44,646 nucleotides of DNA from Fistulifera solaris (GCA_030295235.1 AP026140.1:992001-1036646), one strand, 5' to 3'. Shown: positions 6,138 through 29,165, counted from the first letter of the stretch. Numbers and translations are program-made. The notes: generated by a model from the letters alone, not told the origin.

Positions 6138-9100
6138 CTAATCTATCTCTAATTCTTCGTCTGGCTCATTTCGAGCACACAGCTGTGATAACGATGGAAT
6201 GCCTTGACCGGGAACTTTTTCAAACACGGCTTGCGATAGAGATTGCTTGGTTACGCCGGGGACTCGACAAGTAGGACAACTGGACGAACGTTGTAGCCAT
6301 TCCAGCCAACAAGACAAGCATGCCATATGGCCGCATTCTGACACAAAGGGTTGGGCACAAGAATCGCTGCAGATGGGGCAGGTCAAATCTTTCGGTGCGT
6401 TGGAGCGTATTGAACGTCGAATGTCAGAAACTTTCCGTTGCACATAGACTTCCGATCCAACTTGTTGCAAACATGCTTGCACAGGATCTGCCTTCTTCAT
6501 GGACGCTACCTGTGAAAATGCTCTATTGGGCTGGGTGGTAGATGAGACGGGAGCGTTTTGCTGAGACATCACCACTGGCTTAGATGAAGGCTTGCTTTTG
6601 GTTGCGTAAGGGTTGGTGGTTGGCTTGTTTAATGGTGGCTTTGCAGGGACCGGATTCTCCGATTCGGCAGGTCGTTTGCGAGTGCTGTTTAACCCAACGG
6701 CGGCAGGTTTGATGGATGCCGGCTTTCCTGGGGCTAGATTTTCAGTTTCAGCGGGACGTTTGCGCGTAATGTATGAGTTGATGGTGGGCTTTGCTTTCGG
6801 CGGCACGACAGATTTTTGGGGTGCGATGGAAGACCCAGCAGCGGGTTGCATATTAGTTGAAGTATCGGTCGGAGATTTGACCGTGTCCGATGATCCGGCA
6901 ACGACTATCTCTGGTTTTGACAACGACGAAAATCTCGCAAGCGATGATCGCTGAAAAGCTGCACCATCAACAACTGCTTCTCCACGATTTGTTTTGTCCG
7001 TCTCGCGAAGTTTTTGGATATTTCGCGAAGCAAGAATATCATCAGCGATTGCGCTGGTACTGGAATGATAAGATTCTGGGATGATTTTGAGTAGAGCATT
7101 AATCATAGATGAAGCCTTCCCTTCGGCTTTCAGTACGATTTTCAAATTGAATTGAACTTCTCTGAGGTATTCTTTTGAGGGCGTCGCTGAAACAGGACCG
7201 TCGCACCAGAGTGATACAAGCAACGTACTGATCCCAGTTTGTATTCTTCCTGCATCAAGGTCCGATAGGGCATCCCTGCAAAGCTTCCCCAGGGAGGAGT
7301 GCTCATAAACACAATTCATCGCGATAGATTGAATGGCTGATCGATGCTGAGATGGCTGTAGCTCGCAAAACAGAAAAACCATCGGTTTCTCCTTTGCCTG
7401 GATGGCCTTGTCGAACGCCCTCAACTTGGCAAATAATGGAAATAACCCCGCGCACATGGATCATGTAGCCTTTTTCATCCTTGTTCTCGCCGCACTGTTT
7501 CATCGCCTTTATTAACTTCTTTATTTTCGATTGCTCTGAGGGCGGAAACTGATTCGTGAGCTTATGCATGAAAGATGCAGCAATTGATTTTGACTCAGAA
7601 GTACCACCAGTCGGCTTGAGTCGCTTTGAAGATTCGAATACGCTATCAATAAAGGAACCTCCTTTCGTGGAAATAGTCAATGTATCTCCTTTCGCATCGC
7701 TGATAGTATGCTCTTTCGGTTTATCAATATCTTTCATATCAATGCGTGCAATAACTCTCTCTGGCGGAACATAAGAAGATCCACCGTTTGCGGAACCAGA
7801 GGCCGCAGTACTTTCTGGCACTTCGCCATTTCTTATGAGAGCAACTTTCGTAATTTCATCCTCCACTGTTTTAGCTATAGGGGAAGCGGCTTCTCGTCAT
7901 CGTAAGCAAGAGAAACACGACCCGTAGATTTTGCTTCCTCCTCTGCGCGCTCTTTGGCTCTGGCTTCAGCGGTCTTGAAAAATTGAATGAGGCCCTTGTT
8001 CGCGACGCCGTATCCTTCATCCGGCTGAACATGGGCGCGTACCCATTTGCTGAGGCCTATCTGATTTCTCTTATCGCCAAATCGAGAATCTAGTAGAAGA
8101 ACAGCCCCGTAATCGTTACGGTTTCGAATAACCCGCCCTATGGCCTGATTGACAGCTCTGTGGGCTTGCTGTGTATACCAGTCATTTCCGGAAAGCGTCA
8201 GAGATGCATCACGAGCTATATTATTTCCCGGGTCACCGAAACCACTATCCGTCCTGGGTTTTACGCTTTTGTTTGCGCGGGCCAAATCTAAGAACTCCCG
8301 TTTCAACTGTACCTTTGCATCGTGAGATGGAGCGAAGGGAATACCAGTGATGACAACCGCTCGACTCATTTCATTAGCAAAATCGATTCCTTCACTGATC
8401 TTTCCACGGCATACTCCCATTAGTATGCACCCTTTCGACTGAGGCAGGTCCAGTAAGCGTTTAAACTCTGACATGGCATCAGGGAGATCGGCTGATGAAC
8501 GCGGTTCCAGAACAATTGACTTGCACGATAACATTCTTTTCCAAGGTGTGTTAGACGGTGTATTACTTGCGAACGCTGCTGGGATCATTGGAAATGAGTA
8601 TTGATTGGCCGCCGACTGTTTCTTTCTGATTGCGAAAAAGTTTTTCTTCTTGTCTTGATCTGAATAGGATCGTGAAGAGGATGGTCCACCCCAGCGTTCA
8701 AGACATGTTTCCATGACGCCGTACGATGGAAAAAACACTAGCATTCCGTCAGGCGTTACTCTCGCGATGTTGACTAGAGTGTTGCCGAGCTCGCTGTAAT
8801 ATTCCCCATCTTGGCGCCGCTGGTAAGAACTATTAAGGATCTTCCCTGTCACGCCTGTACCGATCACACGAACATGAATCTGATCGTCACCAATAATGTG
8901 AGGGTTTTCAAGGACATTCGGAAATGGCAACCCAAGCTCCATCGCGTAACTCGGAAGCGGAGACAATGTACCAGATGTCACCAGAATGGACCGCACTTTG
9001 AGCCCAGCGAGCTCTTCCATTGCCATTGCCGGCGCAAAGCACCAGTAGGAGATCGTTCTACCCGCGTTAGGATCGGTAGTTTTCGGCGAGACGTGAACTC

Positions 9101-10435
9101 TATAATAAGCAGCCTTGGCAACACATCTGGACTCCAGCGGGTGTCCGTATACGCGTTTCAGGCATTGAATGAAATGCTCCAGCTTAGGCGATCCGCGTGT
9201 TGCGCCCGTTCCTCGCATGTCCATAATAGCATCATTGATTTTCTTGATTTCCTGAATGAAAAGATCGTGGTTGGCATGCGTTATTTTAGCCCCTTGTTGA
9301 AAGAAATGCATCATAAATTCACCGGAGTAAGCTGTTTGCGGCCCTAAATTCACAAGATATTCTTCCAAGCTAAGAAACAAGGCTTTCAGTCGAACGATGT
9401 TATCCACCTTCAATTGCAGGTCAGGCAAGGCTTGTACATAATTCATTGCCTTTGTCAGTTCTGCAATGCAGCCGGCGATATCGCCATTCGAGAGGTCGAA
9501 TGAAGCACTGTCGCTGGCAAATGACTCAAGGTTGTGGGCTTCATCAAATATTACAACAGCATTCTCCCACGCTATTTCTGCCAGAGTCGTCGTCCGCGAA
9601 TCTTTGTCAAAAAGATAATTATATGGCATCAAAATAAGTTCGGCGCCTTCGACGAGCGATCGAGTGTAGTAAAACGGGCACACGTTATGTTTTTTGCCGA
9701 CTTCCAGCAATTCTTCAATATCCATGATCGGTTGTGTACCGCCTCCGCTGGCAGAATCATCCACGGGCAAAGAAAATCGCTCGAGATTGTTTTTAAATCG
9801 ACACTTCCGATCCTTTCCTAGCTTATTGCAATCGTGATTAATATCAAAAGACGATGCGTGTTGCGTTTTTACCTTTGGATTGACACACATTTGTTCACGT
9901 GAGCCTACACCACAAAAAAAGTGAGAAGCAGGGTGGTCTCTAAAATAGGAACATGCCTCGTATACGCACCTAGAATCGCATGCTGAGGCCGATATCGTGT
10001 TGTCTTGAGTTCACGCAATACTTGTGTCAGCTGAGAATGCGTTCTCGATGCATAAATAACAGTGGGTACGCGCCTTTGAGGCTGCTTTTGTTGTTGACTC
10101 ATTTGTGGCTGTTGTTGCATATCTTCCCGGGGTACATCTTGTGCGGCCAAGTGCACTAACCGAGCTTGTTCGCGTTGCCAAGCCAAAGTCGCACATAGCA
10201 AGCAGAGTGTTTTCCCAGTTCCAGTAGGCGACTCAAGTAGTGCATTTTCGGCGCGAAACAACGATTCCATTACCTTCCGCATGTAAGCCTCTTGACATGG
10301 GTAAGGTTGAAACGGAAAATGAACATTCACACCGTTAAGTTGAAGAGTCGTTGGTGCTGAAGAAGCTCGCCGTCGACGTGTCGAGACGACGACTCGACTT
10401 TCCGTTTCTTGTGCCTTTGGTTGGAAGGATCTCAT
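6138..10435 (-). CDS. RTEL1: RTEL1-like XPD-family Fe-S DNA helicase with C-terminal RING finger; intron 9905..9969; frameshifts near 7870 and 7450
   Basis: Motifs [34 protein letters not shown], spliced [48 protein letters not shown]. The C-terminal [17 protein letters not shown] is a RING. Four consecutive minus-strand ORFs join into one gene. Confidence 0.88.
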
Positions 10436-15597: not shown

Positions 15598-16122
15598 TTA
15601 GATAATCTTGACATGGCAGGTCGCACCTCGAATCGCGGTTCGGCAAGAACGACTGAGCCACCAGCTGTAGGTGAGCGCGGCAAGGTTGTCCTGGCAGTCA
15701 TCGTGAACGTCAGCGACAAGAGGAGTGTAGTCGGTCAACTCTCTTTCTTCCAAATGGTCAGCCTTGCGTAGCTGGCGACGAAACTGGCAATTGTACATTT
15801 GATTGCAGAGGCTACGGGGGTAAAGACGTCTGCAAAAATCACAGTTGGGTGTACTCACAGCGAGCTCGCGTCGGATTGCAGAGCCGATTTCCCATACCGG
15901 GGTAAGATAGTTGTAGGTGAACAGCGTCATGTCAATGTCGGCAAGCATTTTACGGTCAATGTAAGCAAGTTCACCGTCGGTACAAGCGGAAGGCGCGGCT
16001 TGCTCATTGACGTAGTAGACGACCATCTCGGGGGCCTCCTGTTGCGCAAAGAGGAAGGCACTGGTGTAAGGAAAGATCGACGCCAAAGAAGTGACGAGAA
16101 TGGCTAGGGCAAAGTGTTTCAT
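15598..16122 (-). CDS. Small secreted Cys-containing protein with RXL motifs, unknown function
   Basis: ATG 16122 begins a signal peptide MKHFALAILVTSLASIFPYTSA. Internal RREL, RRQL and EREL motifs and 8 Cys are present. Confidence 0.65.
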   Translation of the reverse strand: MKHFALAILVTSLASIFPYTSAFLFAQQEAPEMVVYYVNEQAAPSACTDGELAYIDRKMLADIDMTLFTYNYLTPVWEIGSAIRRELAVSTPNCDFCRRLYPRSLCNQMYNCQFRRQLRKADHLEERELTDYTPLVADVHDDCQDNLAALTYSWWLSRSCRTAIRGATCHVKII

Positions 16123-21078: not shown

Positions 21079-24069
21079 TCATTCAAATCCAGTGAATACA
21101 GCATTGTCTTTCGCAGGAGGCGCTGAATAATTGCTGGCCTTAGTAATCTTCAATCGTTCGTTCTCCACGCCGACCGAAATGGTGTCGCCATCGTAGTACT
21201 CGCCTGCCAAGATACCGCGAGCAATTACCGTTTCCAGTTCACGCTGAATAGTTCGCTTGAGAGGACGGGCACCATAAACTGGATCAAAACCGACATCCGC
21301 TAAAAGTCGAGAGCCGCTTCGCTGACATGAATCTCGATTTGGCGCTCCGCAAGGCGCTTCTCCACCCGTCTGACTTCCAGCTTGACAATGTTGCGTAGAC
21401 TGTTCTTGCCCAAACTATTGAAAATGATGTATTCGTCAATGCGATTCAAAAATTCAGGACGGAAATTTTCTTTCATGGCTTGGGTTACTCGCTCTTTCAT
21501 GATAATTTGTGCGTCTGGTTCATTCGATCCATTTAGATCAAGAATATCTTGACTTCCGATGTTGCTAGTGAAAATGCAGATGGTGTTTCGGAAATTCACC
21601 ACGTTGCCTTTAGAATCAGTCAAGCGACCATCGTCCAACATTTGTAGCATAACATTGTACACATCAGGGTGTGCCTTTTCCATTTCGTCAAACAAGATTA
21701 CCGAATACGGTTTGCGGCGAACGGCATCAGTTAACTGGCCGCCCTCGTCGTAGCCTACGTATCCAGGAGGGGCACCAAGAAGGCGAGAAACGGTATGTTT
21801 CTCCATGTATTCCGACATGTCGATACGAATCAAAGCATCTTCACTGTCAAACATAAACTCAGCCAAGGCTTTGCAAAGCAAAGTCTTACCAACACCCGTC
21901 GGACCCAGAAAGATAAAAGAAGCAATGGGCTTGTCAGGATCATTAAGACCAGCGCGGGATCGTTGCACGGCCTCTGTTACGGCTTCGACGGCCTCTTCTT
22001 GTCCAACAACTCGGTTCTTCAACTTCTCTCCCATTGTCAAAATGCGATCTTTCTCGGTTTCCAACAATTTACCAGGAGGGATTCCGGTCCAAACAGCCAC
22101 AACTGCAGCAATATCATCAGCAACGACTTCGTCACGGAGCATTTTCTCGCGGTTGTTCATATCGGATTCCGTTTCCATGGCATCCAATTGCGCCAGTTCC
22201 TCCTCCAGAGGCGGAAGGGCCGAGAACTTCAGTTCAGCTGCCTTGTTCAAATCATACTCGCGCTCTGCTTTTTCAATTTCAAACTTAATGCCCTGAATCT
22301 TTTCTTTCAATTCGTTGAGACGATTCACTCCACCTTTCTCGGCCATCCAACGAGCGGTCAAATCCTGTTGTTCTTTCTGCAGCTGCAAGAGCTCCTCATC
22401 TAGCTTTGCCAGACGGTACGACTCCTCTGGCGTAGACGAACCGTCTTTTTTCAAAGTCGGAGCGCAACGACAGCCGTTCCATCTCCAATTGGATAATGCG
22501 ACGATCAATCTCATCTAAGACCACAGGCTTGCTGGTGATTTCATTTTTCAGCTTCGCACAGGCTTCGTCGACAAGATCAATGGCCTTGTCAGGCAAGAAG
22601 CGGTCCGGGATGTACCGATGACTGAGCTTGGCCGCCGCAAGTAGAGCTTCATCACGAATACGAATACCATGGTGCAACTCATAACGTGGTTTAAGACCAC
22701 GCAAAATACTGACAGTATCTTCAGGAGTCGGCTGATCAATCATAACCTGTTGAAAACGACGTTCCAAAGCCTTGTCCTTCTCAATGTACTTTCGATACTC
22801 ATTCACTGTAGTCGCACCGATGCAACGCAATTGTCCTCGCGCCAAAGCTGGCTTCAAGAGATTACTGGCATCCATGGATCCCTGTGCGGACCCAGCACCG
22901 ACAACAGTATGCATTTCGTCAATAAAAGAATAATCTCTCCGTCACTCTTCATGACTTCCTCAAGAACAGCTTTGAGTCGCTCCTCAAATTCACCACGCAT
23001 CGTCGCACCGGCTACCAACGCTCCGAGGTCGAGACCAATCAGGCGACTGCCTTTCAAACTTTCCGGAACATCTCCATCAACGATACGTTGAGCAATGCCC
23101 TCCGCAACAGCCGTCTTTCCGACTCCAGGGTCTCCGATCAACACAGGATTGTTTTTGGTTCGTCGCGATAAGATTTGAATAGCACGTCGGATTTCGTCAT
23201 CACGACCGATCACTGGATCTAATTTGCCTTCGCGAGCTCGTTCGGTAAAATCAATGCCGTATTTGTTGAGTGCATCGTACATATTCTCCGCACTTCGCGA
23301 AATGACAGGCCCCGACTTTTCACGCATGCCTTTGACAATAGTCAGCAAGTCCTGGTATTTAACATTTTGCTTGAAAAGAGCATCGCGAGTAAAAGGGAAT
23401 CTTCCTTGGCGAGCGCCAGCAAGAGACCTTCGGAAGATACAAATGAATCCTGTGAAATGAAAAGCAATAAAAATGATGAGTCAAAGGATGGATGCGTCTA
23501 CCATAACATCTCTCGAATCACAACTTACACCTAGTACACTCTTGACTTGCGTCGCACCGTCCAATACGGCTTGCAGCGATCGTCCCATGGTCTTCTGCGC
23601 CCCGGAATCCGCACTAATCTTGGCCTGTCTCGCCAAAAAGTCATCGAGTTCTCGACGCAAGTCGCTCACGTTACACTGAGCTTGCGTTAAAATACGTTCC
23701 ACAACCTTGCGCGCCGCTTCCGCGTCGTCACCGGCGTTGTGTTTCTTGGGATTGAGCAGTAAATCCAGCATCAAAGGTGCTTCCACATTCGACGATTGAT
23801 GGAATTCGGCGGCTTTGGTCAAACTAGCGATCGCACTCCAGGCCGCGTCGGTGTATTTGGCTTGATTAAAGTCATCAGCAGACATTTGAAGTCTAGAAGA
23901 GCGACGATAAGGTGTGCTTGTCAAGAACAAAGAGGGAGCTAGTGTCTTTGGCGATCGAGAAAAGGTCGACGAAGGCACGAGTGCAGCAGGACAAAAGGCG
24001 TTCGAATGTTGCCATGTTGTCGAAGCAATACTGAAAAGAAAAAAGAACTGCGCTGTTTCCAAGCTTCAT
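21079..24069 (-). CDS. clpB: Plastid-targeted ClpB/Hsp100 disaggregase; intron 23450..23528; about 5 homopolymer frameshifts
   Basis: [47 protein letters not shown], coiled-coil middle domain, [50 protein letters not shown]. The repaired N-terminus [25 protein letters not shown] is a signal plus Phe transit peptide. Confidence 0.95.
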
Positions 24070-24825
24070 GCTTGTTTTTTTATAGCAGCAACAGAAGAAT
24101 AAAATAAATACGATTGATAAATATTTACTTGTCGTTCAAAGACGCGAAGAGAAAAATAATGAGCTTTTGTCATCGCTCTCGTGTTTCGGGTTCGCTTGAC
24201 ATCGCTTCGTTTCGCCATCAAAGGTGGTGCGCGCGTTCTACATAACAATGAATAGTAAGTTATAACGGTCTCATTTTGTATTGTACTGACTTTAATCCCA
24301 CTCTGACAACTGACACGTGGAGCACTCTCCGATCTCCGACAGACCGTCGTTATTGCGATGCTTATTATTTCGAAAAAAATAATGGCACCTTCAATAATGC
24401 GCCTAATCCTTCATCATATATTACTTTTGCATTTCTACAATTAAAAATACCTCTTCATCCTGTTTCAAAGACTGAGACATCGTATTTGTTGAGTACGATC
24501 CACCGCTAGCGAACACGGGGATAATCAAGAGGAATCGCACCGCTTGAAAGCGGCCCTACTGCGTCAAGAAGATCGTCAATGGTCGATTTGTCGAAAGTAA
24601 AAAGTACATTACAACAATCTGCAGCTTCAAAGGAAATATGATAATCTAGTTTCGCATCACTGAGTGAACGATTTTTCTAGCAAGAGTGATGGTGAGAAGA
24701 GAGCGCGAATTGTTTTGGCGTAACTAAATGAAAGGATGTAGCTGGCAATGTCTACGATAAATGCAGCGCGAACATTCTGCCTAAAGATTAATTTCGCCTA
24801 AATGCTGCGTGAATCGTAAGACGGC

Positions 24826-25601
24826 CTAAATGCGGCGGCTTCCCGAATCGGCCGAATCCTTGCTGGCACTGTCAAGATGACGACGGCTTCCCGAATCGGC
24901 CGAATCCTTGCTGGTACTGTCGAGATGACGACGGCTTCCCGAATCGGCCGAATCCTTGCTGGCACTGTCGAGTTGACGACGGCTTCCCGAGTCGGCCGAA
25001 TCCTTGCTGGCACTGTCAAGATGACGACGGCTTCCCGAATCGGCCGAATCCTTGCTGGTACTGTCGAGATGACGACGGCTTCCCGAATCGGCCGAATCCT
25101 TGCTGGCACTGTCGAGATGACGACGGCTTCCCGAATCGGCCGAATCCTTGCTGGCACTGTCGAGATGACGACGGCTTCCCGAATCGGCCGAATCCTTGCT
25201 GGCACTGTCGAGATGACGACGGCTTCCCGAGTCGGCCGAATCCTTGCTGGCACTGTCGAGATGACGACGGCTTCCCGAATCGGCCGAATCCTTGCTGGCA
25301 CTGTCGAGATGACGACGGCTTCCCGAATCGGCCGAATCCTTGCTGGTACTGTCGAGATGACGACGGCTTCCCGAATCGGCCGAATCCTTGCTGGTACTGT
25401 CGAGATGACGACGGCTTCCCGAATCGGCCGAATCCTTGCTGGTACTGTCGAGATGACGACGGCTTCCCGAGTCGGCCGAATCCTTAGAGTCGTTGCTTGC
25501 CAAAAACGCTTTCGCAACATCTGGTTGCTGCTTGGAATGTCACTTGAGCTTCCGCACGTCAAAGAGACGAGGAACAAGAGGGTTGCAGTGGTGAACTTCA
25601 T
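24826..25601 (-). CDS. Secreted silaffin/silacidin-like polyprotein precursor: signal peptide, pro-peptide ending RKRFL, 14 x (DS[A/T]SKDSADSGS-RRHL); one frameshift at 25502-25506
   Basis: Signal MKFTTATLLFLVSLTCG (ORF 24798..25601) joins ORF 24826..25503 if the 5-T run is 6 T. Two recurrent repeat polymorphisms (CTC/CTT, GAC/GAT) are synonymous in this frame but not in the overlapping same-strand frame. Confidence 0.8.
24829..25485. repeat. 48-bp coding tandem repeat, about 14 units
   Basis: Unit (plus strand) cggcttcccgaatcggccgaatccttgctggcactgtcgagatgacga repeated head-to-tail with few substitutions. Confidence 0.97.
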
Positions 25602-25920
25602 GTTTGATGAGTACGTATTGTTTTTCTTTCGAATGTTTTGTTTTATGAGCTCAATGTGTCAAATTAGAAAGATATCGCATTTTGTGATCTACCTGTGTAC
25701 GTCAGTATATCTTCCACGTTTCTCGCTTCTCGCTCACCTTCACACGAATCGTCACTCACCTCCGATCCCACATCTGTTAACGTAACTAACAGACGGAACA
25801 CGGAGTTGATTTAATTGTGATGGGATTTATGGTTTATGGAATCATGAATGGCGTAAGTTCTAATATCGAAGACTCTGTAAACATTTTAAGCACGACTCAT
25901 TGCGAGCCGAAACCGGAAAC

Positions 25921-27444: not shown

Positions 27445-28047
27445 TTAATTGTTCTCATCACTGATGCCGTCATCTGCGCTGTCATCCGCGCTGTCGGTGT
27501 CGTTATTATGCGTTTCAATCATCGCGTATCCGCTTTCGCAACCCGTGGCATTCAGTACAATTTTCAAGAACGCCTTCTCACAGCCAGTGAGATTGATGTT
27601 ATTGCCAACGCCTGTGATTTCGCAACCACTCCTATCCGTTTCGATAACCATTAGTCCATGATTGCAGTTACTGATGTTCATTTCGATTTCAAAAATTACG
27701 TCGGTGTGGTTAATCACAATTGTTTCATCATCCGCACTATCGGAATCGCGATCCGGCACGCTGTTCAAATCACTGTCGTCGTTCTTATCGTCGGAGGAAT
27801 TCTCGTTTGGTTGAAGGTGACGGGTGGATGAGTGTAAAGTTGCCGAAAAGCGATCCAACGGGCTGATCCCCGCGCTTCCTAGTTCGAACGGGTGCTTTCT
27901 CAAATGCGGACTCGAATGAGGTCTCAGGCTTGCATGCGTCGGTTCATCTGGTTCGTTTTCGACTTCGTGATTGGGCAATGAAGCGAGGACCAAGAACGTT
28001 TCTTTTGAAAAAGTATACAACAAGAGACAAAGTAAACGACAATTCAT
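27445..28047 (-). CDS. Putative secreted acidic (Asp/Ser/Asn-rich) protein with RHL pro-peptide site and DSAD motifs
   Basis: 200-aa ORF with hydrophobic N-terminus MNCRLLCLLLYTF, STRHLQ, acidic blocks ENSSDDKNDDSD..DRDSDSADDE and DTDSADDSADDGISDE around a 4-Cys segment. Confidence 0.6.
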   Translation of the reverse strand: MNCRLLCLLLYTFSKETFLVLASLPNHEVENEPDEPTHASLRPHSSPHLRKHPFELGSAGISPLDRFSATLHSSTRHLQPNENSSDDKNDDSDLNSVPDRDSDSADDETIVINHTDVIFEIEMNISNCNHGLMVIETDRSGCEITGVGNNINLTGCEKAFLKIVLNATGCESGYAMIETHNNDTDSADDSADDGISDENN

Positions 28048-28961: not shown

Positions 28962-29165
28962 TTATACGGTTTGTTTCAGCAAGCGATGACGGTCGCTGCC
29001 GATTTGGTCCGCTTTTCTTAAAGGCTCTTTCACTTCTCCGTTCTTTAAAGACGAAGGCTTCGGTTCGACCATGACGCGGTGGATCTTGTTGTTCGTTGAG
29101 AGAAGGCTTGAATTTACTCCCGGCAAAGCTGCAACGATAAATAGAGTTAGAAAAGACAGTTTCAT
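28962..29165 (-). CDS. Small putative secreted protein (may extend to 28831 through a frameshift)
   Basis: ATG 29165 begins MKLSFLTLFIVAALPGVNS, a signal peptide, and the ORF ends in DRHRLLKQTV*. Confidence 0.4.
   Translation of the reverse strand: MKLSFLTLFIVAALPGVNSSLLSTNNKIHRVMVEPKPSSLKNGEVKEPLRKADQIGSDRHRLLKQTV

Follow-up and report, generated by a model that had tools for sequence, protein, structure and literature searches.

In the silaffin precursor Sil1p, the repeats end in the tetrapeptides RRIL or RRNL, and these are absent from the mature peptides (PMC4557024). The repeats of silacidins, cingulins and frustulins likewise terminate in RXL sites, and an RXL-specific endopeptidase has been inferred (PMC4557024). 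Silacidins are rich in Ser, Asp and Glu, and their activity with polyamines requires phosphorylation (PMC4557024). More generally, diatom proteins associated with biosilica typically carry a signal peptide and, behind it, a short segment that terminates in RXL (PMC5525289). Silaffin-like proteins have been screened for (Scheffel) by a content of at least 18% Ser and at least 10% Lys per 100 residues (PMC3478156), and Kirkham et al. found a silacidin homologue in neither of two pennate genomes, those of P. tricornutum and F. cylindrus (PMC5649158). Here we describe a minus-strand tandem-repeat locus in a 44,646-nt stretch of DNA (AP026140.1:992001-1036646; 'the window', to whose first letter all coordinates refer). 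The best overall explanation of the locus, to which we assign a probability of about 0.6, is a real diatom gene for an RXL-processed, silacidin-like polyanion precursor. A sequence-only reading of the window had already compared the locus with the RRIL/RRNL spacers of Sil1p and the RXL sites ending silacidin repeats, and both of these literature statements stand as cited (PMC4557024, PMC5525289).

The polyprotein frame and its missing base

The minus-strand ATG at 25601-25599 begins MKFTTATLLFLVSLTCGSSSDIPSSNQMLRKRF. In the window, the frame continues beyond a run of T as W-Q-A-T-T-L-R, followed by 13 units of the IRPIREAVVISTVPAR type, down to 24798. The neighbouring minus frame is open from 25539 and reads ..AFL-ASNDSKDSADSGS-RRHL, followed by thirteen 48-nt units, eight of them DSASKDSADSGS and five DSTSKDSADSGS. 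Over the whole gene there are 12 RRHL spacers and one RRQL, and the terminal unit ends in RRI ahead of a TAG at 24826-24828. Tandem Repeats Finder delimits the array at 24836-25485 (period 48, 13.5 copies, 97% matches). The arrangement claimed by the sequence-only reading, 13 copies of DS[A/T]SKDSADSGS with RRHL spacers, one RRQL and a final RRI-stop, was thus found exactly, in this neighbouring frame (the DS frame below). The features of the locus are collected in Table 1.

Table 1. Features of the repeat locus in window coordinates
Feature	Position	Strand	Basis
Start codon ATG and signal-peptide-like N-terminus MKFTTATLLFLVSLTCG, codons 1-17	25551..25601 (ATG 25601-25599)	-	Translation, Kyte-Doolittle
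Pro-region SSSDIPSSNQMLRKRF(L), with RFL (RXL site) at its end after frame repair	25501..25550	-	Restored frame
Homopolymer run, 5 T on minus / 5 A on plus, one base short	25502..25506	-	Read-derived contigs
First, divergent unit ASNDSKDSADSGS + RRHL, 51 nt	25450..25500	-	Unit listing
13 units of 48 nt, DS[A/T]SKDSADSGS + RRHL (11), RRQL (1), RRI-stop (1)	24826..25449	-	Tandem Repeats Finder, unit listing
Opposite-strand ORF (open reading frame), EMTTASRIGRILAGTV repeats, taken as repeat by-product, not gene	24877..25785	+	ORF, Pfam, AlphaFold2

The two minus frames can be joined if one base is missing from the T-run, as had been predicted from the sequence. We checked the length of this run by placing contigs from four public sequencing runs on 25440-25800, with the long repeat excluded. 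All three contigs that cross the T-run carry one extra base there, at the full read depth. They come from two sequencing runs of two studies, X1 (a DNA metagenome) and X2 (organism A). The X1 contig has an A inserted behind 25501 (depth 11.8 of 11.8). X2 yields two contigs of like depth, one with A inserted behind 25501 (15.3) and one with G behind 25503 (15.9), together accounting for 31.2 of 31.2. On the coding strand the X2 forms read TTTTTT and TTTCTT; both give R-F-L-A, and the TTT/TTC difference is silent in the restored frame. The form with G also has D21E and S25G in the pro-region and looks like a second, frame-keeping allele. The remaining runs do not reach the T-run: X3 covers only 25542-25700 and X7 only the repeat unit. 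The analysis of the T-run is confined to these four runs; six others, X4-X6 and X8-X10, have small word shares and carry no weight in it.

Overall, the one-base homopolymer deletion in the window is most likely an assembly or consensus error. X1 may be the window's own source sample; in that case it is not independent of the organism, yet it still contradicts the run of five T. We rejected an intron as an explanation for the change of frame. The frames must join between 25539 and ~25500, where ~40 nt leave too little room, and the contigs have an insertion at the run with no skipped stretch and no joints.

The restored product has ~259 residues and comprises a putative signal peptide (residues 1-17), a 17-residue pro-region ending in RFL and an array of 14 peptides. 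This is the signal peptide, short RXL-ended pro-region and set of 14 acidic, Ser-rich, RRxL-delimited peptides that had been claimed, with the N-terminus being signal-like. MKFTTATLLFLVSLTCG has Lys at position 2 and a hydrophobic core that peaks at 2.58 over residues 8-16 (Kyte-Doolittle, 9-residue window). T-C-G occupy positions -3 to -1 before Ser18, with small residues at -3/-1; this cleavage site was placed by hand. The repeat region consists of 31.2% Ser, 18.8% Asp, 12.5% Arg and 6.2% Lys, and has no KxxK motif. Each 12-mer contains five Ser, three Asp, one Lys and no Glu (pI 4.05, charge -2.2), with its serines spaced as S-x-D and S-x-S. For seven DS units AlphaFold2 gave a pLDDT of 53.5 and a pTM of 0.11 without secondary structure, as expected of a disordered protein, and the repeat array is predicted to be disordered.

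Coding frame, strand and relatives

Four of the six frames through the array lack stops, and hence an open frame is no evidence of coding here. We therefore compared the units with one another. Six columns vary among the 13 units, and in the DS frame five of these are third positions of codons (P = 0.018 for a named position). Four of the six variants are silent in the DS frame (P = 0.038 against a 25% expectation). The CTC/CTT and GAC/GAT variants, from which the sequence-only reading had picked its frame, are borne out as silent by the unit comparison, and two more silent changes, both CGT>CGC, occur in the last unit. Only one of the six variants is silent in the window frame, and only one in the codon-aligned opposite frame, where five of six fall at first codon positions. 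The restored frame sets the RXL site RFL directly ahead of the first peptide. Its limits also close around the array, with a stop right behind the last unit and an ATG with a hydrophobic N-terminus ~100 nt upstream. We consider it highly probable that the minus-strand DS frame is a real diatom gene whose frame is broken in the window. There is good support for reading it as an acidic polyprotein that is secreted and delimited by RXL sites.

We then looked for relatives of the product. The DS-frame ORF had no match at E <= 0.001 in a word-indexed protein search. A phmmer search against 1.84 billion representatives returned 230 matches at E <= 0.001; the best 150 of these 230 are all unrelated period-8/16 repeats, and none of the 150 combines Ser/Asp-rich units with RRxL spacers. 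The best score in the ESM Atlas was 0.88, under the 0.9 lead level, and belonged to unrelated clusters. A protein-based scan of JGI metagenome contigs matched 104 pattern stretches, none of which was confirmed, and the degenerate pattern K-D-S-A-D-S-G-S-R-R-x-L-D had no match in these contigs. The exact products of the DS frame and of the window frame are both absent from the protein collection, and the DS frame had no match among the sequences of solved structures. Pfam recorded only Fibrinogen_BP on the DS frame, a compositional match (19.9 bits versus a cut-off of 50). A literature search found no description of the peptide or of an RRHL-delimited diatom polyprotein. Short-read assemblies collapse arrays of this kind, and gene callers may take another frame or strand; absence from protein collections is therefore weak evidence. 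Soluble silica-associated proteins are described as low-complexity, disordered, often species-specific and hard to find by homology (10.1101/2021.09.18.460806), and the lack of relatives agrees with this reported species-specificity.

Two further observations concern similar repeats elsewhere. One of the unrelated phmmer matches, P0260 (200 aa), is built of 16-residue units DAHTVDAPPESG that close with RRML, once with RRIL; its polyprotein layout is likewise delimited by RRxL, and its peptide is a different one. In X7, a freshwater metatranscriptome, three short contigs match one unit at 25440-25485 over 36-46 nt, with 2-4 differences. Environmental RNA may contain something closely related to the repeat unit; these matches are too short to build on.

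Proposed function and rival explanations

By analogy with Sil1p and silacidin, the restored protein would be imported co-translationally into the endoplasmic reticulum (ER), and its serines would be phosphorylated in the secretory pathway. A diatom RXL endoprotease would cut at the 14 RXL sites and at the pro-region site, and the basic RRxL tails would be removed. This would release 14 polyanions of 12-13 residues, with a pI of ~4 before phosphorylation, whose most probable role would be that of silacidin-like, polyanionic partners of long-chain polyamines in silica deposition or in the cell wall. Processing into peptides at the RXL sites is rather more likely than not. A biosilica role of the peptides is a more tentative proposal, which we put at somewhat below even odds. 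We also suggest, as a speculation that we think more likely wrong than right, that the locus is an independently arisen, first silacidin-type precursor from a pennate, non-marine diatom, in which RRHL serves as a charge mask and RXL proteolysis in the silica deposition pathway as an on-switch. The acidic 12-mer (-2.2) is paired with the basic RRHL, so that the repeat region stays almost neutral until it is cut (pI 7.42). If the charge mask is real, only cleavage at the RXL sites would turn the product into a polyanion able to crosslink polyamines.

Several observations count against a silacidin-like precursor gene. Relatives were found in none of the collections searched (for phmmer, among the best 150 of 230 matches), so cross-species conservation cannot be shown. 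The signal-peptide call is a judgement by hand and not the output of SignalP. Codon-usage log-odds, trained on eight confident window ORFs, do not single out the DS frame: it scores 0.117, the opposite frame 0.154 (the highest of six) and the window frame -0.067. With respect to transcription, the RNA label of X2 is a guess, and its contig extends more than 300 nt upstream of the ATG and may be DNA; X7 is the one certain RNA run and covers the repeat unit only, with 2-4 mismatches. By the values of the silaffin-like screen, Ser (31.2%) lies above the threshold and Lys (6.2%) below it, and KxxK is missing. Finally, RXL sites occur in non-silica wall proteins (frustulins) as well (PMC4557024), so that the architecture is no proof of a silica role.

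The points that favour the opposite strand weigh against the precursor gene too. If the plus strand codes, the ORF of EMTTASRIGRILAGTV repeats would be a beta-solenoid or beta-flower-like protein, and the minus-strand signal peptide would be coincidental. Pfam Bflower_2 (PF21785) matches this ORF at 70.6 bits (cut-off 38), its codon log-odds are the highest of the six frames, and single-sequence AlphaFold2 folds seven plus-frame units into an all-beta structure with a pLDDT of 95.3 and a pTM of 0.83. VIA-align matches the model to beta-helices, with bactofilin at Z 11.2 and an rmsd of 2.6 A over 97 residues; pentapeptide-repeat and two-partner-secretion beta-helices are further matches. However, the Bflower_2 score climbs as identical units are added, from 15.2 bits at 3 units to 49.2 at 7 and 68 at 13. 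At ~5-7 bits per unit and perfect repetition, it represents a weak per-unit match multiplied. The beta-flower is a shallow barrel of ~96 residues with ten short strands, 9- and 4-residue loops and five-fold symmetry (PMC10584680). The plus-frame model, by contrast, is a single unbroken strand region (residues 3-111), a generic beta-solenoid, and Foldseek found no PDB match for it at E <= 0.001. Since the model comes from a single sequence, the comparison with the beta-flower is no more reliable than the model itself. Single-sequence AlphaFold2 may be overconfident in beta-solenoids for perfect repeats. As the exact codon-antisense of the DS frame, the plus frame would by the code be filled with the beta-prone residues I/V/T/R/G/A. 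It has a stop two codons ahead of the array and its first Met inside unit 2, and with the true six bases in the run it would close 12 codons further on. The plus ORF also had no relatives at E <= 0.001 in the word-indexed protein search and nothing better than E >= 0.45 among sequences of solved structures. Together with the variant pattern, which in this frame falls mostly on first codon positions, these results make a plus-strand gene improbable. Coding by the frame of the window as given, that is, a 267-residue IRPIREAVVISTVPAR repeat protein behind the same signal peptide, is less probable still, to the point that we hardly entertain it. It is an uninterrupted ATG ORF in the window (24798-25601), but the frame is shifted at the run in all three contigs, a single unit variant is silent, the codon log-odds are negative, Pfam has no match and the exact sequence is absent from the protein collection.

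The locus might also not be a working gene at all. It could be a minisatellite of the subtelomere in which an ORF occurs by chance, or a gene that the frameshift has genuinely knocked out in the sequenced strain. The telomere-type hexamer with ~103 copies lies ~18.4 kb from the gene, four of six array frames are open by construction, the window as given has five T, and the run contigs hold no transcript evidence. Nevertheless, we regard this as improbable, since the sixth base occurs in all of the depth of two independent runs, including two frame-keeping alleles, variation is concentrated at third codon positions, and start, signal-like N-terminus, RXL site and stop are positioned as in a gene. 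A more substantial rival, to which we give perhaps a quarter of our belief, accepts a real and secreted product and dissociates it from silica: the peptides could be an acidic, modified, Ser-rich surface or mucilage component, a cation-binding polyanion, or the yield of a secreted-peptide precursor that a Kex2/furin-type protease cuts at the dibasic RR. RXL sites do occur in frustulins, wall proteins without a silica-forming role (PMC4557024), and a Lys-rich or KxxK signature is missing. The organism also occurs, with small word shares, in metagenomes from wetland, sediment, soil and freshwater, as one would expect of a benthic diatom that secretes mucilage. On the other hand, the full combination of signal peptide, RXL pro-region and Ser-rich acidic repeats ending in RRxL fits the known silica peptide precursors, and the silacidin-like precursor gene remains the explanation we prefer.

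Chromosomal setting and comparison with known precursors

The neighbouring ORFs are eukaryotic and encode an RTEL1-type helicase, TPR, RING and ClpB-like AAA proteins, a kinase and a SET protein. The 671-residue RTEL1-like helicase ORF had 2186 matches at E <= 1e-30, and we examined the best 120 of these. Among them, the best named matches are from Phaeodactylum (64%), Cylindrotheca (61%), Pseudo-nitzschia (58%) and Thalassiosira (57%, partial), oomycetes and land plants reach 36-39%, and no match covering most of the query exceeds 64% identity, which suggests that the collection lacks the species itself. This bears out the diatom host assumed by the sequence-only reading, and judging from these similarities the host is probably pennate. 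A scan for bacterial promoters and terminators gave no site and is irrelevant for a eukaryote.

At the window end, 44017-44646, there are ~103.5 tandem copies of AGGGTT, which we take to be a TTAGGG-type telomere repeat. The window would thus reach a chromosome end, and the polyprotein gene would be subtelomeric, ~18.4 kb in.

Several minus-strand ORFs around the locus have features of secreted or targeted proteins. The 67-codon ORF at 28962-29165 has a signal-like start MKLSFLTLFIVAALPGVNS, ends in ..SDRHRLLKQTV with an RXL-type site ~60 residues in, and runs straight into GTATAA, which could serve as an intron donor. Lying 3.4 kb upstream of the polyprotein gene on its strand, the ORF may be exon 1 of a further secreted protein with an RXL domain. 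A 200-residue ORF at 27445-28047 has a hydrophobic N-terminus, TRHL near residue 77, several Cys and the Asp/Ser-rich stretches DSDSADDE and DSADDSADDG. It belongs to no Pfam family, its similarity to the polyprotein is not significant (E 7.6), and it may be another acidic secreted protein, encoded beside the polyprotein. The ORF at 15598-16122 begins with MKHFALAILVTSLASIFPYTSAFLF, a signal peptide and then a SAF-type junction with Phe. This junction presumably resembles the diatom plastid-targeting motif and would fit a diatom host.

Frame changes were seen in two further minus-strand genes. The ClpB-like gene (21300-23348) is divided among three ORFs that overlap and alternate in frame (22854-23348, 22396-22914 and 21300-22514). 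In an alignment with its homologue P0004, the RTEL1-RING gene (6138-9890) shifts frame near 7866-7890 and near 7366-7382, and no gap of intron size accompanies the shifts. These changes may be short introns or further single-base assembly errors.

Two consequences follow from the polyprotein locus. One homopolymer error in a long tandem repeat can lead gene callers to the wrong frame or strand, and the wrong product may even come with a Pfam match and a confident fold. Since homopolymer errors misdirect gene callers in this way, diatom assemblies from long reads probably contain more such repeat polyproteins than have been reported. Silacidins are not known outside the centric diatoms. A gene of a pennate that combines the complete precursor layout with an unrelated peptide would be a concrete candidate for the polyanion that polyamines are still missing as a partner when pennates form silica, and the peptide is short and easily synthesised, hence testable.

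Among precursors outside the diatoms, that of yeast alpha-factor is a polyprotein cut at dibasic sites. Both it and the product described here carry many copies of one short peptide in a secreted precursor to be cut at basic spacers; here, however, the spacer is of the RXL type found in diatoms, and the peptides would be polyanions rather than signals. Among the diatom precursors, Cylindrotheca fusiformis Sil1p has a signal peptide, an RXL-ended pro-region and tandem short repeats each ending in RRxL, and so shares both the processing logic and the spacer type (PMC4557024). In contrast to the basic, Lys-rich repeats of Sil1p with their polyamine-modified lysines, the peptides here are acidic (pI 4.05) with 6.2% Lys. 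The 'SEV.S.SE' protein of Entomoneis vertebralis, also a pennate, has been proposed as silacidin-like from a repetitive Ser/acid motif, without similarity to the Thalassiosira pseudonana silacidin (PMC12533330). It differs in its motif and in an uncertain gene model, and the accessible part of that report mentions no RRxL-delimited polyprotein architecture (PMC12533330).

The T. pseudonana silacidin precursor itself shares with our product an ER signal peptide (here signal-like, as judged by hand), a repetitive design and repeats ending in RXL sites, and, by composition and architecture only, peptides rich in Ser and acidic residues. The silacidin peptides are cut out, become strongly anionic on phosphorylation and act with long-chain polyamines (PMC4557024, PMC5649158; Wenzl 2008, Richthammer 2011). 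The present peptides differ from silacidin in that Asp is their only acid, each has one Lys, and their spacer is the tetrapeptide RRHL; the host, too, looks pennate and non-marine, unlike T. pseudonana. The sequence-only reading had proposed a hybrid of silaffin and silacidin. Its silacidin half fits by composition and architecture only, while its silaffin half fits poorly, given the low Lys content and the lack of KxxK. The product is silacidin-like rather than silaffin-like.

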